64,000 nucleotides of DNA from a virus (taxonomy: Duplodnaviria > Caudoviricetes), in IMG/VR virus record IMGVR_UViG_3300021255_004427, positions 160,102 through 224,101 of that record; one strand, 5' to 3'. Position numbers and translations under genes: made by a program. The notes under the pieces were generated by a model. That model was not told the DNA's origin. It searched no databases and worked only from the letters and a program-made list of their open reading frames with translations. Position 1 is the first letter of the stretch; each line of letters begins with the position of its first letter. Positions 1-9,041 of the stretch are shown here, piece by piece.

Positions 1-432
1 TTCTTTGCGTGGGGGTCAGTAGTAGGAACTACGGAATCTCGAATTTATTCTACTAGGCATTGGGGAGATTCACCAGACAAGCCTAACGGCGCAAAGTCAT
101 TATTTGAAGACGGTGATTACTATACTTGGCGTTTTGTATGTGCCAGCGCTACTGGTATGGTTTGCTATCTGCAGGATACTCCGGTATTCTTAGGCGGTTA
201 TTTTTCTACGGTTCCCGCTAAGGAAATTCCACTTAAACCGAATTCTGCTAACTATATCTATTTCCATAGAAATAGTGATGATTACAAGGTAGTAGACGTA
301 GAGGTAACACAGTCGCCGCGAAATGATGTGGACGGTTTTAACCGTATCTACCTTACCAAGGTGGTAACCAACGCTGACGGTCCTGTATCACAAGAATATA
401 ATCAGATAGATAATTATCATAAGAAAAAGTAA
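1..432 (+). CDS. C-terminal part of a probable virion/tail protein (starts before the window)
   Basis: Frame 1 is open from base 1 (FFAWGSVVG...) through the 157..432 ORF; late-gene context. Confidence 0.6.
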   Translation, partial: FFAWGSVVGTTESRIYSTRHWGDSPDKPNGAKSLFEDGDYYTWRFVCASATGMVCYLQDTPVFLGGYFSTVPAKEIPLKPNSANYIYFHRNSDDYKVVDVEVTQSPRNDVDGFNRIYLTKVVTNADGPVSQEYNQIDNYHKKK

Positions 433-442
433 AGTTTTGACA

Positions 443-485
443 TCTAGTCACCGATGTAACCAAATCTCAAACACAAAGGTAATAT
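443..485 (+). promoter_or_regulatory. Putative phage late promoter motif, copy 1 (TCTA-N6-GATGTA-N18-AGGTAAT)
   Basis: TCTA 443-446, GATGTA 453-458, AGGTAAT 477-483; identical spacing in two other intergenic copies. Confidence 0.7.
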
Positions 486-563
486 ACCCCTTAGATGGGT
501 ACGACAAAATGGGCGGTCGTTTTTGGCCGCCATTGTTATGTCTGAAGAAAGGAAAAGGTAATC

Positions 564-1235
564 ATGGATACTAAAACCTACAACGTAAATCTTAAAGCTA
601 AGAAAACTTCTTGGGGAGGGCTTGCTTTTAACTTAAGTAAAAACGGAAAATTACTGGGCGGAGTTAATAAGCCTATGGACAGTGAAATGGCTTTGATTTT
701 GACTAATGAAAAACATTTAATGGATCAATTTTATAATCCGTACGAAAATTTGGAATATATTCCAGATGAATTTATCCTTGCGCCAGACTTAACTACTTGC
801 CAAGAAATGTTTGCGTACGGAACAAGTTTAAAATCAATCAATTTATCTTTATTTGACACGTCTAATATGACAAGCTTATATTGGATGTTTGCATGGTGTG
901 AATCTCTATTAGAAGTAGATGTAAGTAGCTTTAACACAAGCAAGGTAACACATTTCGGCGGAGTTTTTATGAATTGTCACGCCTTAAAATCGTTAGACCT
1001 AACCAGTTGGGATACATCAAATGGAAAGTTTTTTAGTAATATGTTTAGTCAATGCTACGAGTTAGAAGAGATTAAAGGAGTCATAGATATAACCAAAGCA
1101 GGCACTGGTTTTAGCGGAATGTTTGGAAACTGCGATAAGTTAAAACAGATTAAAATAAAAGCTACGCCAGACCAGCAACGATATTTCCGTAGCACAGCTG
1201 AGCTTAACTCCAGTACTGAAGTTATCTTTGTGTAA
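564..1235 (+). CDS. DUF285/BspA-like repeat protein with Lys-rich N-terminal adaptor
   Basis: Repeats FDTSNMTSLYWMFAWC, FNTSKVTHFGGVFMNC, WDTSNGKFFSNMFSQC; purine-rich RBS. Confidence 0.85.
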   Translation: MDTKTYNVNLKAKKTSWGGLAFNLSKNGKLLGGVNKPMDSEMALILTNEKHLMDQFYNPYENLEYIPDEFILAPDLTTCQEMFAYGTSLKSINLSLFDTSNMTSLYWMFAWCESLLEVDVSSFNTSKVTHFGGVFMNCHALKSLDLTSWDTSNGKFFSNMFSQCYELEEIKGVIDITKAGTGFSGMFGNCDKLKQIKIKATPDQQRYFRSTAELNSSTEVIFV

Positions 1236-1269
1236 CTCTTACACTTAAAGAAAGGGTAGATTAAATACT

Positions 1270-1947
1270 ATGGACAATAAAACCTACGAAGTAAAATTAA
1301 AAGCTCTCAAGACCAATCCTGAAATTAATTGCCAGTTAAACGCTATGAGAGGAAAAAAGAAAGTAAGCGTCTTAAACAAGAAGATGGAAACAGATTTGGA
1401 GAGTATTTTCTTGACGGATACTAATCATATCGTTGCCAAAATACTTACAGGTAAAAGTTCGTACACAGGTACAGCATTTGATGTTAGATTTCGTTCCACT
1501 TCTAACTTAACTAATTTAAGTTGTGCATTTAAAGCATGTACACAGGTTAAACAAATTGATGTAAGTGGAATAGATGTTTCAAATGTCAAAACGTTGGAAT
1601 ATACATTCGGTTATTGCCGTAAGTTAAAATCTATCGATTTATCTAATTGGAATACGTCTGCGGTAACCAATTTTCATTGTATGTTTTCTAATTGCTTGGC
1701 TCTTGAACGAGTTGATGGAGTAATCGATATGACATCCATGCCTCGTTCCATAAATAACGATACGATTGGTTTCTTTGAAGTTATGTTCGACTCTAATGCT
1801 ACAAATCTTCGCGGCGTAAAATTGAAAAATGTTCCGGATAACTTCATGGAAAATGTTACCATTCGTCGTGGAAGCAGTCCGACCATACATCCGGGATACC
1901 GCTGGTGCGGTTTTAACTCCCCTGACCAATTCGAAATAGTTTCCTGA
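1270..1947 (+). CDS. DUF285/BspA-like repeat protein with Lys-rich N-terminal adaptor
   Basis: IDVSNVKTLEYTFGYC, WNTSAVTNFHCMFSNC repeats; N-terminus MDNKTYEVKLKALK paralogous to 564. Confidence 0.85.
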   Translation: MDNKTYEVKLKALKTNPEINCQLNAMRGKKKVSVLNKKMETDLESIFLTDTNHIVAKILTGKSSYTGTAFDVRFRSTSNLTNLSCAFKACTQVKQIDVSGIDVSNVKTLEYTFGYCRKLKSIDLSNWNTSAVTNFHCMFSNCLALERVDGVIDMTSMPRSINNDTIGFFEVMFDSNATNLRGVKLKNVPDNFMENVTIRRGSSPTIHPGYRWCGFNSPDQFEIVS

Positions 1948-1949
1948 GT

Positions 1950-1992
1950 TCTACGTACTGATGTAGCTGAACTTCGTATCCATAGGTAATAT
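1950..1992 (+). promoter_or_regulatory. Putative phage late promoter motif, copy 2
   Basis: TCTA 1950-1953, GATGTA 1960-1965, AGGTAAT 1984-1990, followed by a GGCGGC..GCCGCC hairpin. Confidence 0.7.
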
Positions 1993-2083
1993 GTCCCATG
2001 TAAGGTGGCGCGAGGCGGCCATGTTCTTGCCGCCCGCACTATCTCTCACACATAAAACTTTATTTTCAAAGGAGAAATGAGAA

Positions 2084-3073
2084 ATGTCTCTTACAAACCT
2101 CTCTCAGATTAAAGGTCTGAAAAATCTTCGCGGCGATGTAGACTTGCTCTTAAAGTCCTATGATGCTGCAAAAGTTGTAACTCAAATCGCTAAAGCAGAG
2201 GGCGAAGGCAACTACAATGTTGAGGAACTGCTCGAAGCATTGAAGTCCAAACTGGACGCTATCGCTGGCACAGGTGAAGGCCAGTCTCTCGACGCCCTCA
2301 AAAAGGCTATTGACGACCTGAAGAATAAGCCTATTAAAGCTTACACGGGCAACGCCGAAGAACCGGTAAAAGAGTATAAGCTCTTCGAACTGCCGGAAGA
2401 TGCTCTCCTTAAGAGTGACGAGCTGGACATCACGGCTTATCAGAATGCCTTGGATGCACTGGTAGCTAAGCTGGCCGCCAATAAAGACCTTATCAATGCG
2501 GTTAAGGAACTGGTCGGCGAGCAGAGCGCTCAGGAACAGATTGCTGCCGCCATTAAGGCTATGGAAGATGCCTTAGCTCTTAAGGCTGACCAGGCCGACG
2601 TAGACAAGACCAGCGCTGCCGCTCAGGTACTTGATACTAAGGTTAAGGCTCTCGAAGAAGGTGCTGTGGCTGAAGTTCAGGACGTAGTAGCCCTGGGCGA
2701 CCTTCAGGTAGCTCTCCCGATGACTAAGGAAGCTAACGACCGTCTGGTTCGTGTTTACGTTAACGGCGCTGTTTACTACGAAGGTGACGATTTCACCGTT
2801 GACCGCCAGAAAAAGGAAGTTAACTGGACGCTGACTGACTTCGAACTGACCAAGGCTATCGCCTCCAAGGTAACGGTTAAGTATTACGCTCCGTTGGGTT
2901 TGGGCGAAGAACCGTTTGACCCGTCGCTTATTCAGCTTGATGACTCTAAGATTGTCTTGACCCGTGAAGAGCCGGAAAAGAGCTTTAATGTAACCATCCC
3001 GGCCGACTGTACGCTGGAAGTAGTTCCGTCCGACCCGGAAGCTGTTGAAGTAACGGTAACGGAAGTAAAGTAA
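2084..3073 (+). CDS. Putative virion fibre/scaffold protein (coiled coil + VYVNG beta domain + C-terminal half Ig domain)
   Basis: Strong RBS AAAGGAG, biased codon usage, paralogous to 5019..6530 (MSLTNL.QIKG...LLKSYDAAKV). Confidence 0.7.
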   Translation: MSLTNLSQIKGLKNLRGDVDLLLKSYDAAKVVTQIAKAEGEGNYNVEELLEALKSKLDAIAGTGEGQSLDALKKAIDDLKNKPIKAYTGNAEEPVKEYKLFELPEDALLKSDELDITAYQNALDALVAKLAANKDLINAVKELVGEQSAQEQIAAAIKAMEDALALKADQADVDKTSAAAQVLDTKVKALEEGAVAEVQDVVALGDLQVALPMTKEANDRLVRVYVNGAVYYEGDDFTVDRQKKEVNWTLTDFELTKAIASKVTVKYYAPLGLGEEPFDPSLIQLDDSKIVLTREEPEKSFNVTIPADCTLEVVPSDPEAVEVTVTEVK

Positions 3074-3081
3074 GCAAAATA

Positions 3082-3122
3082 AAGTTGGCGGCGCCCTGAA
3101 AACAGGGCGTCCAAGCCAACTT
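3082..3122 (+). terminator. Long intergenic hairpin after the 2084 gene
   Basis: AAGTTGGC-GGCGCCCTG-AAAA-CAGGGCGTCC-AA-GCCAACTT; no clear U-tract, so may be a stability/processing hairpin. Confidence 0.5.
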
Positions 3123-3150
3123 AAAGTGTATTTCATTAGAAGGTGAATGA

Positions 3151-3825
3151 ATGGACTTCAGGAAGTTTTCAATAAAAACCAAGAGGATCTCAAAAGACGA
3201 AAAAGAAATCGGTATAAGCCTCAATGCATACAGGGAAGGTAAGATTGTTTCAAAGACAGGCTTAGATGTAGAAGTTTGTAACACTATTTTCTTTACGGAC
3301 ACCTGTCACAGCTTCCAGTACAATAATATATATTCTCTTGAGGAACTAAAGGTTCTCACTAGCATACCTAAATATAGAGTGAGTCCTAAGATTAAGGACG
3401 TTTCTTATATGTTCGGCAACTGCCGCAGCGTAGAGTCGATAGACACGTCTGCTTTTTATGGCATCCAGCCGAAGGACATGACGGGGATGTTCTTTTTCTG
3501 TCAAAATCTCAAATATCTAGACTTGACAGGGATAGATTTCTCCCAAGTCACGAGTTATAGAGTAATGTTTCATAGCTGCACTTCATTGCAGCGAATAGAC
3601 GGAGTGTTTGACTTATCAAATATCAAGAGCAATGACGATCTTGAAAATCTAAACAATATGTTCAAGAAATGCCCGTCTACGCTAAAAGTGAAGTTAAGAA
3701 ATATTCCAAGCAATTTCTATACCGCTATTAAACCTAAGAGAACAAGTGATTTTGGCAATGTGGTAGCGATGCCTTGTTCTCAGCGTATGGGATTGAAGCC
3801 TGAGCAGATAGAGATTGTTGAATAA
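3151..3825 (+). CDS. DUF285/BspA-like repeat protein with Lys-rich N-terminal adaptor
   Basis: DVSYMFGNC, DMTGMFFFC, IDFSQVTSYRVMFHSC repeats. Confidence 0.85.
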   Translation: MDFRKFSIKTKRISKDEKEIGISLNAYREGKIVSKTGLDVEVCNTIFFTDTCHSFQYNNIYSLEELKVLTSIPKYRVSPKIKDVSYMFGNCRSVESIDTSAFYGIQPKDMTGMFFFCQNLKYLDLTGIDFSQVTSYRVMFHSCTSLQRIDGVFDLSNIKSNDDLENLNNMFKKCPSTLKVKLRNIPSNFYTAIKPKRTSDFGNVVAMPCSQRMGLKPEQIEIVE

Positions 3826-3839
3826 TAACGGAGAACATA

Positions 3840-4856
3840 TTGACCATGAACAGACTCAAGACTTATGAGGTATTATTAAGGGCGTTAGATAATACCTCCC
3901 TAGCCACAATTGATATTAGTGTAAACAAAAAAGGAAAAAATATTTTCCAACGCACCAAGGGCGTAGAGGCAAATGGATTCCCTGTGCCTTACCTTAGTTT
4001 TATAGAAGAAAACAAGAGCCCATTTACGTTAAAGACAACGAATACTCAAAAAAACTGGAATGGAAAATTAGAATATTCTACGGACAAGAAGATATGGAAC
4101 GAATGGAACGGAGAGGAGATTTCTTCTTCTGATAACGGCGAATTATTTTTGCGAGGAGAAAACAATTCTCACATTGTAGACGCAGCAAAAAAAGCATCAG
4201 AGCAACCATTCGTGTTCAGTGACAACAATCGAATACAATGCATCGGAAACATCGAAACGTTACTTGACTGTAAAATGGTAATGAATGGGGAGCATCCGCG
4301 TATGGATGACAGGTGTTTTAGTGCGCTTTTCTACAAAGCAAAATCATTGACATCCGTATATGAATTAGAATTACCTGCAAAGCAATTGACGTACGCATGC
4401 TATAATGCTATGTTTTGCGACACATCAATCACGAAAACACCAAAAGAATTACCTGCCATTTCTTTAGCAGAAGGTTGTTACAGTGCTATGTTTCAAGGCT
4501 GTGCAGATTTAATTGAAGCGCCAAAAACACTACCTGCGAAACAAACTTTTACATATAGCTATTCCAGTATGTTTTCCCAGTGCAGCGCCTTGGTTAGTGC
4601 GCCCGAAATATTAGCTACGTCTATGGGAGTAGGTTGCTGTAACGCCATGTTTAGCGAGTGCGATTCGCTTATTACACCTCCTTCTAAGTTGCCTGCAACT
4701 AACCTGGGAAAAGGATGTTATACAGGCATGTTCATTGGGAGCTATAAGTTAAATGGAACAATCCACTGTCCTACATCTACGGCCAATGACCCCAACAGAC
4801 TTGACATTAACGTCGATATTCCAGCTAATACAGCTACCGTAGTATATGACTTATAA
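3840..4856 (+). CDS. LRR-like repeat protein (LPA..LA.GCY..MF..C repeats) with the same N-terminal adaptor
   Basis: Tandem ~24-aa repeats such as ELPAISLAEGCYSAMFQGC; N-terminus KTYEVLLRALD; alternative ATG at 3846. Confidence 0.8.
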   Translation: MTMNRLKTYEVLLRALDNTSLATIDISVNKKGKNIFQRTKGVEANGFPVPYLSFIEENKSPFTLKTTNTQKNWNGKLEYSTDKKIWNEWNGEEISSSDNGELFLRGENNSHIVDAAKKASEQPFVFSDNNRIQCIGNIETLLDCKMVMNGEHPRMDDRCFSALFYKAKSLTSVYELELPAKQLTYACYNAMFCDTSITKTPKELPAISLAEGCYSAMFQGCADLIEAPKTLPAKQTFTYSYSSMFSQCSALVSAPEILATSMGVGCCNAMFSECDSLITPPSKLPATNLGKGCYTGMFIGSYKLNGTIHCPTSTANDPNRLDINVDIPANTATVVYDL

Positions 4857-4878
4857 TCCCTAAAATACTTTCCTGTGT

Positions 4879-4921
4879 TCTACGGTTAGATGTAGCTAAT
4901 CTCGCTATCCACAGGTAATGT
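4879..4921 (+). promoter_or_regulatory. Putative phage late promoter motif, copy 3
   Basis: TCTA 4879-4882, GATGTA 4889-4894, AGGTAAT 4913-4919, followed by a hairpin. Confidence 0.7.
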
Positions 4922-5018
4922 ATACGATGTAAGAGTAAAGCTCAGACGGTCTGTTTTAAAAAGGCCGCCGACGCTGTCTCTTAGTTAAATTTCTATACTA
5001 TAAAAGGAGAAATGTGTA

Positions 5019-6530
5019 ATGTCTCTTACGAATCTTGCACAAATTAAGGGTGGTCTTCAGCTCCAGGCTGACGTACAGGCGCTTCTGAAGTCCTACGATG
5101 CTGCCAAGGTTTTGACGCAGATTGCTAAGGCTGTAGATGAAGGCGAAGAAGCCTCCAACTACAATGCCGAGGAACTGCTGGCAGAACTCAAGGCTAAGGT
5201 AGACGCCATCGCCGGCGAAGGCACTGAAGGCGAAGGTGTATCCCTGGCATCCCTGGCTGCCGCTATCGATGCTCTTAAGGACAAGAAGCTCAAGGATATG
5301 GTCCGCGTTGAGTTCGGTATCGCATCCGGCGTAGCTACTCTTCCGGCTGATTTCGACGCTAAGGTTCCCGCTTGCGACAAGACGAAGGCTCTGCCGGTTT
5401 ACACGGCTGACAACGAAGTCGTATTCAACGAGAACGGCGAACAGCTGACCATCGTTCCGGAAACGGGCGTACTGAACGGCGTTCCTTCCGTAGTAGACGC
5501 TGAAGCATCTGCTAAGGCTGAAGACGGCAAAGTTGTCTACAAGGCAATGGGCGACTTCACGGGTAAGATTTTCCCTGTGGGCGAATGGAAGCTGGCCGAC
5601 CTGCCGACCGAAGCTCTTCTCGACAACAACGAGATGCAGCTCGTTGCTTACAAGACGGCTCTCGATAAGCTGGTAGTTGACCTGACCCGCGATGAAGACC
5701 TCATCAACCAGGTTAAGGAACTGGTAGGCGAAAAGGCTGTTAAGGATCAGCTCGATGCTGCTCTGGAAGCCGTTAACGAAGCTATCGCCGGCAAGGCTGA
5801 AAAGGCCGCTCTGGACGAAGTAGACGAAACAGTTAAGGCTATCGATGAACGCGTTAAGGCCATCGAAGACGTACAGGAAGAGATGGTTTCCGATAAGGTT
5901 GCCGTTTCCGGCCCCGTTACCGAATTCGCCCTGTCCAAGAAGCCGAACGCTAAGCTGGTCGAAATGGTTATCAACCACCTCGTATACCGCGAAGGCGAAG
6001 ACTTTACGGTTGACCGCGAAGCTCAGAAGGCAGTCTGGACACTGACGGCTGCTAATGATGGCTTCGATATCGATGCTGACCTGACGGACGCTGTTCGTAT
6101 CAACTATTTTTTTAAGGCCGCCGGTGAGGCCGTAACACCTGCACCGGCTCCTGCGGAAAACCCGACGGATGCTCCTGCTGGCGAAGGCTGGGAGGCAGTT
6201 GTAAACGTTCCTAAGGCTGCAACGACCCTCGACCTCCAGAAGGTTTTGACGGCTGAACAGCTCGCGGATATTACTGACGAAAACGCTGCCGGCCCGGAAT
6301 CTGATGGCGTAGGCCGTAAGATTCGTTGCTATGTAAACGGTGTAGAACTCAAATGGGACTACGAAAACACTGGCGATGAAGAAGTAGAGGCTGCTCTCGT
6401 AGCTTCTGGCCTGACCAAGGGTAAGGAATTCGTATTCGGTACTTACGAACTGGATAGCTCGAAGATCCTGAACTTCAGCTGCGGTTGGAGCGAAACCGGC
6501 TGCGACGTAAAAATCGTTTACCAGCCGTAA
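5019..6530 (+). CDS. Putative virion fibre/scaffold protein, paralogue of 2084
   Basis: Shared N-terminus and Y.EG.DFTVDR domain; extra ~100-aa insert, PAPAPA linker and different C-terminal domain. Confidence 0.7.
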   Translation: MSLTNLAQIKGGLQLQADVQALLKSYDAAKVLTQIAKAVDEGEEASNYNAEELLAELKAKVDAIAGEGTEGEGVSLASLAAAIDALKDKKLKDMVRVEFGIASGVATLPADFDAKVPACDKTKALPVYTADNEVVFNENGEQLTIVPETGVLNGVPSVVDAEASAKAEDGKVVYKAMGDFTGKIFPVGEWKLADLPTEALLDNNEMQLVAYKTALDKLVVDLTRDEDLINQVKELVGEKAVKDQLDAALEAVNEAIAGKAEKAALDEVDETVKAIDERVKAIEDVQEEMVSDKVAVSGPVTEFALSKKPNAKLVEMVINHLVYREGEDFTVDREAQKAVWTLTAANDGFDIDADLTDAVRINYFFKAAGEAVTPAPAPAENPTDAPAGEGWEAVVNVPKAATTLDLQKVLTAEQLADITDENAAGPESDGVGRKIRCYVNGVELKWDYENTGDEEVEAALVASGLTKGKEFVFGTYELDSSKILNFSCGWSETGCDVKIVYQP

Positions 6531-6545
6531 AACTAAATGCAGGTT

Positions 6546-6580
6546 AATAGAGTGCCCTGCCATGGGGCGCTCTATTTTAT
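6546..6580 (+). terminator. Rho-independent terminator
   Basis: AATAGAGTGCCC...GGGCGCTCTATT then TTAT. Confidence 0.7.
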
Positions 6581-6604
6581 CTTCTTTTTAGTAAAGGAGT
6601 AAAA

Positions 6605-7141
6605 ATGGCATACGATAAAACAAATGATTTGTTTCCAATTCAGAATGATGTTTTGACGACACTTCTGACAAATAATACGAAAATCTCCAAGTTAAATGGC
6701 CTAAAAACTGATGGCAAATCCATTGTTAAAGCGATTAACGAATTGTTGGGTAAGTTAAATACCGCCCTCAGCCAGGTAACTACAGCCAGTCAGGAAGCTA
6801 ATGAGGCAAAGGACGGCGTGGCTGGGGTTAAAACGGAAGTTCAGACAATGGTTACTGAAATCGTAACCCAGAAGATGACCGAAATTGTCTCTGGTGGCAT
6901 TCAGAACGATGAATTTACTTGCGAGGACAATCAGACGGTATTTAAATTATCCAAGGCACCTATCGATAAAGACAATATCTTGTTCTATATTAATGGGGTA
7001 AAGTACAGGAAAGTTGATTGTCGTTATGACGAATCGACAAATACTGTTGAGTGGGTTAATACGGACATTGATGAAAATCATCCGCATCCGTTCTACTTAA
7101 AAAACACAGATGTCGTGTCAGCCGTATATATGAGTAAGTAA
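6605..7141 (+). CDS. Putative virion protein with LKT..KSIVKAINEL motif and FYING beta domain
   Basis: LKTDGKSIVKAINEL resembles a phage tail-fibre motif; FKLSKAP..ILFYING resembles the domain in 2084 and 5019. Confidence 0.65.
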   Translation: MAYDKTNDLFPIQNDVLTTLLTNNTKISKLNGLKTDGKSIVKAINELLGKLNTALSQVTTASQEANEAKDGVAGVKTEVQTMVTEIVTQKMTEIVSGGIQNDEFTCEDNQTVFKLSKAPIDKDNILFYINGVKYRKVDCRYDESTNTVEWVNTDIDENHPHPFYLKNTDVVSAVYMSK

Positions 7142-7158
7142 TTGGAGGTTTTTACAAT

Positions 7159-8733
7159 ATGCTTTTAGATGCTAAGCAAATGGATCCTAAATTTGAGCTT
7201 TGGTATAAAGAGTTCATGAGAACTCGTTTTCCTGAAATCGTTGATTATGAGTTGGTCTTTAACGATAATGGATATGTGGCGGAACAGGACGAAAAAGGCC
7301 GCTACGTTGTAAATATGGATAAGGGTGTTAATCTATCGATAGATAAACTCCCACAAAAAGTTAACGCATTCTATAAGAACAAGGCTGCCGGAGAACTGAA
7401 TATCCATTGGGATGCAGCTGTTCGCAACTATAACCCAAACAAGAGTGGCGAGCAGGTTTTGCGCGCAGGCCTCGAAGTGGGCGTATATAATCCCATGAAC
7501 TTGACTCCGGAACTGGTTATGCTTATTGCCCGTAGCGAAAAGATTTCCTTGCAAAACTGGTGGAAGAATAGCGCCAAAGTTAAGGAAGTAAGCTATCTTA
7601 ATGGCACGAAGGCAGAAGACTTCGCTGTTTTGGAAGATTACTATATCACCGATATGACCCACGCTTTTGCTGGTGCAAGTGAAGTAGAAAGCCTTCCTGA
7701 ACTGGCTACCGAGAAAGATAATTCTCTTACCAGCCTGGCTTACGCCTTCGATGGCTGCGCAAAGCTGAAGGCTGTTCCGTCTATCGCAACCGTCGGCGTA
7801 ACCGATATTGAAGGCGCATTCCGTGGATGCGAATCCCTGACGGATCTAAGCGGTATGGATTTGAGCAATAGCTATATGATTGCTCACGCATTCAGTGGCT
7901 GTAAAAACCTGAAGAAGCTCCCGAATCTATCTGGTTTAGCTACGGCAACTCCGAGCAGCTTTGTCGACGCATTCCGTGGTTGCTCCAGCCTTCCTGCAGT
8001 GTTCCCTTATACGATTAACGTATCCAGCGTAACAAACCGCAATAACTTTGGCGGCATGTTTGAGGGCAGTTCCGTCAAGGAAATCACTGTTCGTTACGAC
8101 GGTGAAACTATTCCTGAATACATTTGCCCGCTCTTTATGGGTAACGCATTGGAAAAAATCACCATCGTGAATGCTCAGGGCGAAGTTCGTGAAGTCCGTA
8201 CCCAGGCAAATAACCCGTCTATGATTTCTTACTTAGCTGCAGGAGACAGCAAACTGATTGTTCCGGCAGGCGTTTCTTCCATGAAGGTTGCTCTGGTATC
8301 TGGCGTAAGCTATAGTTATAGCACAGTAGATATCAAACACATCGCCGTTAAAAATAATCCGTCCTCGATTAAGCGCGGCGAAGAAGAAGTAATCACTTCA
8401 AACAAGGCAGCTGGAGAACGCGGTCATTACTTCGACTACATGGGTAGCCAGGAACAGCATGGTGGTTTCCCGGCCATGTTTGATGCTCAATACGAAGACT
8501 ATAGCAATGGCCAGGTTTATTGCTGCGGCGTAGGCGGCGGCAAACAGCTCACCAAGTATTGCCATGCTTGGGGCGCATTGGAAAACAGCTTCGTACAGGA
8601 TACGGTAGCAGTTACTCCGGGTGAAGAACTGACGATTAGCGTCGGCAATGGTAGTGCTTCTGGTGACTGCACGTTCAATAAGAAACCGGGCAATGGCTTG
8701 TATAATGGCTACGTTTTAGTAGAGTTCCAGTAA
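7159..8733 (+). CDS. Tail-fibre/adhesin-like protein: Big_4-like domain, BspA/DUF285-like repeats, glycine-rich C-terminal domain
   Basis: LPQKVNAFY..IHW..SG; AF.GC..L repeats; VPAGVSSMKVAL...VAVTPGEELTISVG. Confidence 0.7.
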   Translation: MLLDAKQMDPKFELWYKEFMRTRFPEIVDYELVFNDNGYVAEQDEKGRYVVNMDKGVNLSIDKLPQKVNAFYKNKAAGELNIHWDAAVRNYNPNKSGEQVLRAGLEVGVYNPMNLTPELVMLIARSEKISLQNWWKNSAKVKEVSYLNGTKAEDFAVLEDYYITDMTHAFAGASEVESLPELATEKDNSLTSLAYAFDGCAKLKAVPSIATVGVTDIEGAFRGCESLTDLSGMDLSNSYMIAHAFSGCKNLKKLPNLSGLATATPSSFVDAFRGCSSLPAVFPYTINVSSVTNRNNFGGMFEGSSVKEITVRYDGETIPEYICPLFMGNALEKITIVNAQGEVREVRTQANNPSMISYLAAGDSKLIVPAGVSSMKVALVSGVSYSYSTVDIKHIAVKNNPSSIKRGEEEVITSNKAAGERGHYFDYMGSQEQHGGFPAMFDAQYEDYSNGQVYCCGVGGGKQLTKYCHAWGALENSFVQDTVAVTPGEELTISVGNGSASGDCTFNKKPGNGLYNGYVLVEFQ

Positions 8734-8756
8734 GCACTTGCGAAAATAGTACATTT

Positions 8757-8785
8757 TTGCATAAACATCCTTTTTATGGTATACT
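8757..8785 (+). promoter_or_regulatory. Sigma-A type promoter
   Basis: TTGCAT-17 nt-TATACT with extended TG. Confidence 0.7.
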
Positions 8786-8819
8786 ATTTCGGTATATTTA
8801 CAGAGAGGATGTTTTTGTT

Positions 8820-9041
8820 TTGGCAAAGAAGATCAACTATGACGAAAAAATTGCGACATTGGAGCAGAAAATCGAAAAGAAGGCTGCTCAAATTTCTGCC
8901 CTAAAAAACGAGCTCAAAAAGTTGGAAGCAGAAAGCCGCAAGGAAAAATATGAAAGCATTATCGAATTTATCGATAACAAAAAGTTGCCGCTGGATCAAG
9001 TCATGACAGCTCTTGAGATGGTAGCGGAAGATAACAAATAA
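8820..9041 (+). CDS. Small coiled-coil protein (moron-like, own promoter and terminator)
   Basis: RBS AGAGGA, TTG start, MAKKINYDEKIATLEQKIEKK...; hairpin plus T-tract at about 9050-9095. Confidence 0.75.
   Translation: MAKKINYDEKIATLEQKIEKKAAQISALKNELKKLEAESRKEKYESIIEFIDNKKLPLDQVMTALEMVAEDNK

Follow-up and report, generated by a model that had tools for sequence, protein, structure and literature searches.

Donor-strand complementation and exchange are known from the chaperone-usher pili (Fim, Pap and Caf1), and strand exchange is also used in the type V pili of Bacteroidia. In bacteriophages, branched receptor-binding proteins (RBPs) carry conserved N-terminal anchors, as in TSP1-4 of CBA120 with their T4 gp10-like domains and in gp63.1/gp66 of G7C, and the adhesin gp38 of T2 and S16 caps the tip of the gp37 long tail fiber. 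Split immunoglobulin (Ig)-like domains have also been engineered, as in SpyTag/SpyCatcher, SnoopTag and DogTag. Here we analyze a locus in a 64,000-nucleotide (nt) stretch of viral DNA (hereafter the window), which is the last 64 kb, positions 160,102 to 224,101, of the 224,101-bp IMG/VR record IMGVR_UViG_3300021255_004427, a record that is ~95% complete. At this locus a gene for a fiber protein, P0003, is flanked by four genes for candidate receptor-binding proteins, which we call heads. We favor, as reasonably probable, the reading that three-strand donor complementation docks these exchangeable heads on the fiber tip. The elements concerned, all present in the window's list of open reading frames (ORFs) as a preliminary description of the five genes had reported, are as follows.

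564..1235, + strand: head 1, module at amino acids (aa) 1-38 (nt 564-677) and DUF285 leucine-rich repeat (LRR) body
1270..1947, + strand: head 2, module at nt 1270-1383 and DUF285 LRR body; the head modeled with the fiber tail
2084..3073, + strand: fiber protein P0003, 329 aa, defined by its ORF, an AlphaFold2 (AF2) model and 13 aligned orthologues
2666..2893, + strand: β-sandwich domain of the fiber, aa 195-270, with AF2 predicted local distance difference test (pLDDT) values of 75-88
2918..3070, + strand: acidic C-terminal tail of the fiber, or 'plug', aa 279-329, the predicted strands A-D of a joint Ig-like domain
3151..3825, + strand: head 3, diverged module at nt 3151-3264 and DUF285 LRR body
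3846..4856, + strand: head 4, 336/338 aa, second-subtype module at nt 3846-3959 and a different, BspA/LRR_5-like repeat body

In the proposed mechanism the fiber protein would end with only part of an Ig-like domain: its final ~48 residues would supply strands A, B, C and D and be unable to fold alone, and each of the four heads would start with strands E, F and G ahead of its receptor-binding body (DUF285 LRR in three, BspA/LRR_5-like in one). A head that meets the tail would form with it one seven-stranded β-sandwich, with sheets ABED and CFG and the chain break at the position of the D-E hairpin. The opposite charges of the acidic tail and the basic module would aid the fit, and the non-covalent joint would hold a head at the distal tip of every fiber chain. 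Since the same module stands on different bodies, heads could be gained, lost and exchanged as gene cassettes with the fiber unchanged, and one phage could make several kinds of head for one fiber. The fiber is presumably carried on the virion as a trimer, and the heads would bind host receptors.

Fiber tail and head modules

The N-terminal ~190 aa of P0003 are helical. As the preliminary description had it, the protein ends abruptly in an acidic segment, ...IQLDDSKIVLTREEPEKSFNVTIPADCTLEVVPSDPEAVEVTVTEVK (nt 2930-3070), and its last ~48 residues include 11 acidic and 4 basic ones. This tail is the most conserved segment among the 13 fiber orthologues (down to 49% identity) and is C-terminal in all 13. 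It occurs once in this genome and has a net charge of -5 to -9 in the orthologues, with a single exception discussed below. In the AF2 monomer of the fiber (13-row alignment), residues 272-329 have no secondary structure and pLDDT values of 35-62. The same C-terminal tail is also found behind an unrelated N-terminal domain in P0088 (147 aa; L009-L011:8001-8444), whose gene, remote from the fiber locus, adjoins those for PIF1 helicase, RNase H and PhoH in related jumbo phages; P0088 is absent from the genome studied here.

Each head begins with a module of ~38 aa with the consensus K-x-Y-x-V-x-(L/V)-K-A-L ... L-N ... G-K and a net charge of +4 to +7. Heads 1, 2 and 3 are DUF285 paralogues over their full length (BLASTP E 4e-26 for head 2 against head 3, aligned from residue 1) and score 62.5, 48.0 and 30.7 bits, respectively, against DUF285 (PF03382), all passing the membership mark of a Pfam match above 25 bits. 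Head 4 has only the module in common with them. It was described earlier as carrying a different repeat family, and indeed it lies outside DUF285, with no Pfam match and phrog_9915 as its sole assignment, and its orthologue P0083 reaches 19.9 bits for LRR_5, below the cut-off. Its start in the database is ATG 3846 (P0078) and not the TTG at 3840 that the preliminary description used, which is a possible start as well. Foldseek comparison of the head model with the PDB returned weak LRR rows only (E ≥0.12).

Pairwise BLAST between DUF285-type and head 4-type modules is not significant; a profile-profile alignment of the two joins them with 95% probability (E 3.7e-8) over 41 columns in register from the N-terminus. 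A module profile from outside phages, run against the 663 window ORFs, recovers heads 1, 2 and 4 with E values of 5e-17, 1.5e-12 and 2.9e-11, respectively. The earlier proposal that the four N-termini are homologous and basic is thereby borne out, with head 3 as the weak case. Among database proteins, a module profile search found 32, and in 32 of 32 the module stands at the extreme N-terminus, followed by bodies of at least four kinds (DUF285, LRR_5-like, DUF6273 and unknown). In the AF2 monomer of head 2 (24 rows) the body is predicted with pLDDT above 90, and residues 1-19 lack secondary structure (pLDDT 55-66). The module forms an F-G-like hairpin only (20-27/30-38) and its first strand is unpaired. 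Neither half is thus predicted to fold independently.

Among relatives, P0082 (549 aa; L007:8237-9886) is the sole head beside the most diverged fiber; it has no LRR and a weak, sub-threshold match to polysaccharide lyases, and from its sequence the module may also carry enzymes. At L005:5822-6546 and L006:1325-2049, from two samples, a frameshift in an A6 run directly behind the module leaves that module as a 40-aa ORF of its own, and at L012:7663-7740 a G7 run within the module breaks the head gene. Either the assemblies are wrong at these homopolymer frameshifts, or single heads vary between an on and an off state.

Tail and module occur together. The present genome has four modules and one tail, and the fiber loci of relatives (L001-L008 and L012-L014) each have one to three modules beside the tail. 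The most diverged tail (P0027, in L007) has as its counterpart a diverged module, carried by the unrelated 549-aa body. Searching loci by the tail yielded three IMG/VR loci, and the alignment of the head 4-type module one locus, already known. Against 1.84 billion representatives, the tail profile recovered three orthologous clusters, one of them P0088, together with giant repeat proteins.

Predicted complex and topology

We modeled full-length head 2 with fiber residues 270-329 as a 1:1 complex, supplying our own alignments. The interaction prediction score from aligned errors (ipSAE) of the complex was 0.77, 0.76 and 0.74, and that of three controls 0.00-0.03. Of 80 solved complexes 58 attain the mark used for this score, as do 2 of 110 mismatched pairs; with our own alignments as input, these counts apply only roughly here. 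Contact agreement among the runs was at least 96% and partner pLDDT at least 78. When an unrelated protein replaced the head, the tail was still unfolded (pLDDT 44). PDB sequence searches with the tail and with the module gave nothing below E 0.6; as far as sequence goes, the model is therefore unlikely to repeat a solved structure already known to the predictor. The ESM Atlas held no usable look-alike of the tail.

The predicted interface is formed by head residues 1-47 and tail residues 279-328. We took its topology from the reported lowest-error contacts, which fall into antiparallel ladders with constant index sums. In the B-E ladder, head residues 6/8/10 pair with tail residues 303/301/299. 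In the D-E ladder, head residues 8, 9, 10, 11 and 13 pair with tail residues 325, 324, 323, 322 and 320, respectively. These two ladders together place head strand 1 in-plane between the tail strands 299-304 and 320-326. The second strand of the head pairs with tail residues 309-315, head residues 22, 23 and 24 contacting tail residues 314, 313 and 312 in the C-F ladder. With the head's own hairpin, and with strand A and the pairing of G presumed, the ladders give the predicted complex the Ig-like order ABED/CFG, in which the tail contributes A-D and the head E-G, and the C-terminus of the fiber adjoins the N-terminus of the head at the position of the D-E turn. The complementary halves put forward in the preliminary description were thus recovered in silico, the contact ladders agreeing with its division of the fold.

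Conserved residues coincide with this interface. The invariant or near-invariant positions are Lys4, Tyr6, Val8 and Lys11 of the module and Phe301, Val303, Val313 and Glu322 of the tail, and all of them are in predicted contact. The contact of Lys11 with Glu322 lies between the neighboring strands D and E and, to judge from the alternating residue pattern, would be a surface salt bridge. The complementary charges that had been noted for the two halves also hold across the family, modules at +4 to +7 facing tails at -5 to -9 with the same lone exception. An isopeptide lock of the Spy type was considered and rejected, as neither the alignments nor the predicted contact list contains a conserved Lys/Asn(Asp)/Glu triad.

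It could be argued that the pairing is a modeling artifact of two orphan amphipathic β segments, in which case the module would anchor the heads elsewhere, on the baseplate or another fiber, and the tail would serve for trimerization, chaperone binding or receptor contact. The pairing is indeed a prediction, and structure predictors tend to pair orphan strands; moreover, two of the heads and the fiber belong to separate transcription units, and P0088 has this tail with no head gene near it. The near-zero controls and the failure of the tail to fold with an unrelated partner speak against an artifact, as do the match between conserved positions and predicted interface and the co-occurrence of tail and module in all related loci, at one to four here. 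We consider this alternative decidedly unlikely. A nearer variant is that the heads do bind the tail through the module, by another form of β-sheet augmentation such as a trimeric intertwined arrangement of three tails with up to three modules. Such a geometry would suit the long helical N-terminal half of the fiber, which resembles that of trimeric fibers, and the lack of an Ig family detectable by sequence, and the model is of the 1:1 form alone. Yet the 1:1 model is a confident one, its ladders make up the complete canonical ABED/CFG order with the chain ends adjacent, and the F-G hairpin is already formed in the head monomer. We therefore rate the intertwined variant as unlikely, and return to the 1:1 Ig-like joint.

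Our model supports binding of head 2 to the tail. For the co-folding of each head with the tail, the proposal stands for this pair, the one modeled (ipSAE 0.74-0.77), and the homology of the modules suggests that the other heads, and so all four, dock in the same way.

Several results weigh against the joint Ig-like domain. The structural evidence is a prediction, read as reported contacts, and the modeled head is one of four and of the DUF285 subtype, to which the head 4 subtype is linked through profile-profile homology only. The module of head 3 is the most diverged, and the outside-phage profile finds it in the correct position at E 0.07. The tail of L005 is not acidic (net charge 0). Fibers are usually trimers, whereas the model is 1:1. 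A check named beforehand was for homologues with the halves fused; neither the tail-profile search of 1.84 billion representatives nor the module-profile matches contain one, so the splitting of a once-whole domain is undocumented. Kinship with Big_2, which the preliminary description had proposed, was not upheld either: hmmscan, run on 10 tails with E values as high as 10 allowed and on the 80-aa concatenate of tail and module, gave neither Big_2 nor any other Ig family. Likewise, hhalign against DUF11 repeats gives 80% for the tail and nothing for the module, which does not align to the C-terminal part of the repeats and contributes nothing in the concatenate either.

For Big_2 (PF02368) the mark was the gathering score of 22.8 bits, and no match was found anywhere in the 224-kb genome. 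The nearest likeness is to DUF11-type Ig-like repeats of ~125 aa, to whose first ~40 columns tail positions 12-54 align weakly and in one register. These stretches score at most 18 bits each and are significant only when summed over 10-16 repeats. As membership of the DUF11/CARDB-like family (PF01345) requires a match over the whole ~100-aa domain, the tail is not placed there, and the likeness, seen at the level of sequence, would be a part resemblance to strands A-B-C. The giant DUF11, Big_12, Big_6 and MBG proteins were rejected as relatives, their scores being sums of weak stretches and the Big_12 register differing from that of DUF11; we read these matches as likeness in strand pattern. 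Together, the results support an Ig-like topology, as predicted for the joint domain, and half a domain, as judged from the sequence pattern, but not assignment to a named family.

Gene layout and expression

Close relatives lie on contigs of 326-340 kb, which indicates a jumbo phage, so far known from metagenomes only. Neither megablast of window positions 1-9000 nor tblastn of the fiber against 50,697 phage records gave a match. The genes at 564-8733 are all on the + strand. In relatives, large tail-type proteins (Collar, Laminin_G_3) precede the block and amidase and GH25 lysis genes follow it, a context that points to the fiber and its neighbors being virion tail proteins. Further elements of the window are listed here.

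427..531, 1934-2040 and 4863-4975, + strand: upstream element of ~110 nt with a GC hairpin, preceding the units that start at 564, 2084 and 5019
2084..2353, + strand: N-terminal part of the fiber, ~90 aa, 64% identical to the paralogous fiber at 5019
3084..3120, + strand: strong RNA hairpin (-31.5 kcal/mol, z -5.6) within the spacer 3074-3150 between the fiber and head 3
5019-6530, + strand: paralogous fiber, 503 aa
6605-8733, + strand: 178-aa protein and 524-aa LRR protein, downstream of the 5019 fiber

Each gene has its own ribosome-binding site (RBS). Behind the fiber gene, a spacer of 77 nt contains in-frame stops, and the head that follows is read in a different frame, in agreement with the earlier argument from separate RBSs that a frameshift fusion is excluded. 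The homopolymer frameshifts inside head genes of relatives (A6 in L005/L006, G7 in L012) might suggest that tail and module belong to one decayed or mis-called gene, joined by frameshift, readthrough or assembly error. But the fiber chain ends at one and the same residue in its 13 orthologues, which come from many samples, the spacer adds further in-frame stops and a strong hairpin, RBS and start are separate for every head, the genes of two heads precede that of the fiber, and the module is N-terminal in all 32 proteins found to carry it. A fusion by frameshift or readthrough was rejected on the grounds of the conserved stop, the spacer stops, the separate RBSs and the upstream heads, and is close to refuted; we find the broken-gene explanation as a whole hardly credible.

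A further alternative concerns the role of the heads. Tfa of Mu and P2 and gp38/gp57A of T4 are chaperones that bind the fiber C-terminus. Genes just downstream of fiber genes often encode such proteins, and the tail needs a partner to fold, so the heads could be assembly chaperones or caps (Tfa- or gp38-like) and not all alternative adhesins on the virion. Against this, the heads number four, their bodies of 180-500 aa, LRRs and others of a binding type, differ from relative to relative as receptor-binding domains do, and a chaperone would have no need of interchangeable bodies. The gp38 'chaperone' of T2 and S16 is, moreover, itself the adhesin, so that this explanation overlaps with the docking of heads that we propose. 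We regard a role limited to chaperoning as very improbable.

The upstream element is conserved and consists, in order, of GATGTAGC...AGGTAAT(A/G)T, a GGCGG...CCGCC hairpin and an RBS. It departs from the sigma-70 consensus; most probably it serves the phage as a late promoter or a leader, and its three copies suggest three co-regulated units. The hairpin in the spacer after the fiber gene would act as an attenuator or stabilizer. A second small stem in the spacer overlaps the RBS of head 3, and together the two structures could set the ratio of fiber to head expression.

The two fibers (329 and 503 aa) also have a helical middle and a β domain in common, and their C-termini differ. Their shared N-termini (2084-2353 and 5019-5300) probably attach both fibers to one kind of site on the virion. 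The GC content is 35-40% in the head genes and 50-53% in the two fiber genes, a contrast that would fit heads of separate history, exchanged as cassettes. Downstream of the second fiber, the 524-aa LRR protein has the N-terminus MLLDAKQMDPKFELWYKEFM, which recurs on a different body of 415 aa in a relative (L003:12965-14766). In both the window (6605-8733) and that relative, the MLLDAKQMDPKFELWYKEFM-type protein sits after a conserved 178-aa protein. This N-terminus could represent a second tag system.

Comparison with known systems

If the joint is real, several exchangeable RBPs can be mounted on one fiber through a 38-residue tag that folds only on its partner, which would explain why RBP genes come and go like cassettes in this clade, whose members have one to four heads. 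It would also yield a small split-domain connector, natural and non-covalent, with which phages or tailocins could be retargeted and proteins assembled. A bolder extension, which we hold to be doubtful, is that split Ig-like domains are a general non-covalent tag-and-catcher of jumbo phages. Trimeric fiber chains would then take any tagged head, giving mixed sets of the four per particle, P0088 would display the same heads elsewhere, the homopolymer frameshifts seen in L005/L006 (A6) and L012 (G7) would switch heads, and host range would become combinatorial without DNA inversion or a diversity-generating retroelement.

The proposed joint resembles that of the pili in that an Ig-like fold left incomplete in one chain is completed non-covalently by the N-terminal strands of another, and in that the incomplete piece cannot fold alone. 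It differs in the donation of three strands (E, F and G) instead of one, with the cut at the D-E hairpin, in attaching heads to a phage fiber with no polymerization of a pilus, and in the lack of any sequence relation. Chaperone-usher systems are defined by a pilin that lacks strand G only, a one-strand N-terminal extension, a dedicated periplasmic chaperone and an outer-membrane usher; here three strands are donated in the model, and the Pfam and PHROG scans of neighboring genes list no chaperone or usher family, which places the locus outside that class. No periplasmic chaperone, usher or protease would be involved, nor do nearby genes encode one, and the infected cell's cytoplasm would be the site of assembly; because the module is itself the N-terminus, the phage proteins have no signal peptides.

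Branched RBPs join complete folded domains, or short peptides, to other domains that are themselves complete, whereas here one domain would be divided between two chains. In adaptors of the CBA120/T4 gp10-like kind, the anchor protein has gp10-like XD domains, to which other RBPs bind with their N-terminal domains. The anchor-branch RBPs of Klebsiella phages are a further example of such branching (PMC6872550). No sequence similarity to the CBA120, G7C or Klebsiella types was found in PHROG, phage-record and PDB searches. Closer in arrangement is gp38 of T2 and S16, a separately encoded adhesin that sits on the C-terminal tip of the fiber through a conserved N-terminal attachment part and sets the receptor. 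There, one adhesin serves each fiber type, in contrast to four here, its attachment is not known to be a joint Ig fold, and the proteins are unrelated in sequence. Spy-type connectors likewise divide a bacterial Ig-like domain into two self-reassembling pieces that act as a modular connector; they are man-made and isopeptide-locked, unlike the present pair, in which no isopeptide triad is seen.

We found no published description of a split Ig joint between fiber and head, within an incomplete coverage of the literature, and none in the phiKZ structural atlas (PMC13250141). Conserved N-terminal anchors on modular RBPs have precedents, and so does donor-strand complementation. The division of one domain, four strands on the fiber and three on alternative heads, is as far as we have found a new variant of modular RBP docking and, if real, would add a three-strand, chaperone-free form of donor-strand complementation to the ways in which virions are built.

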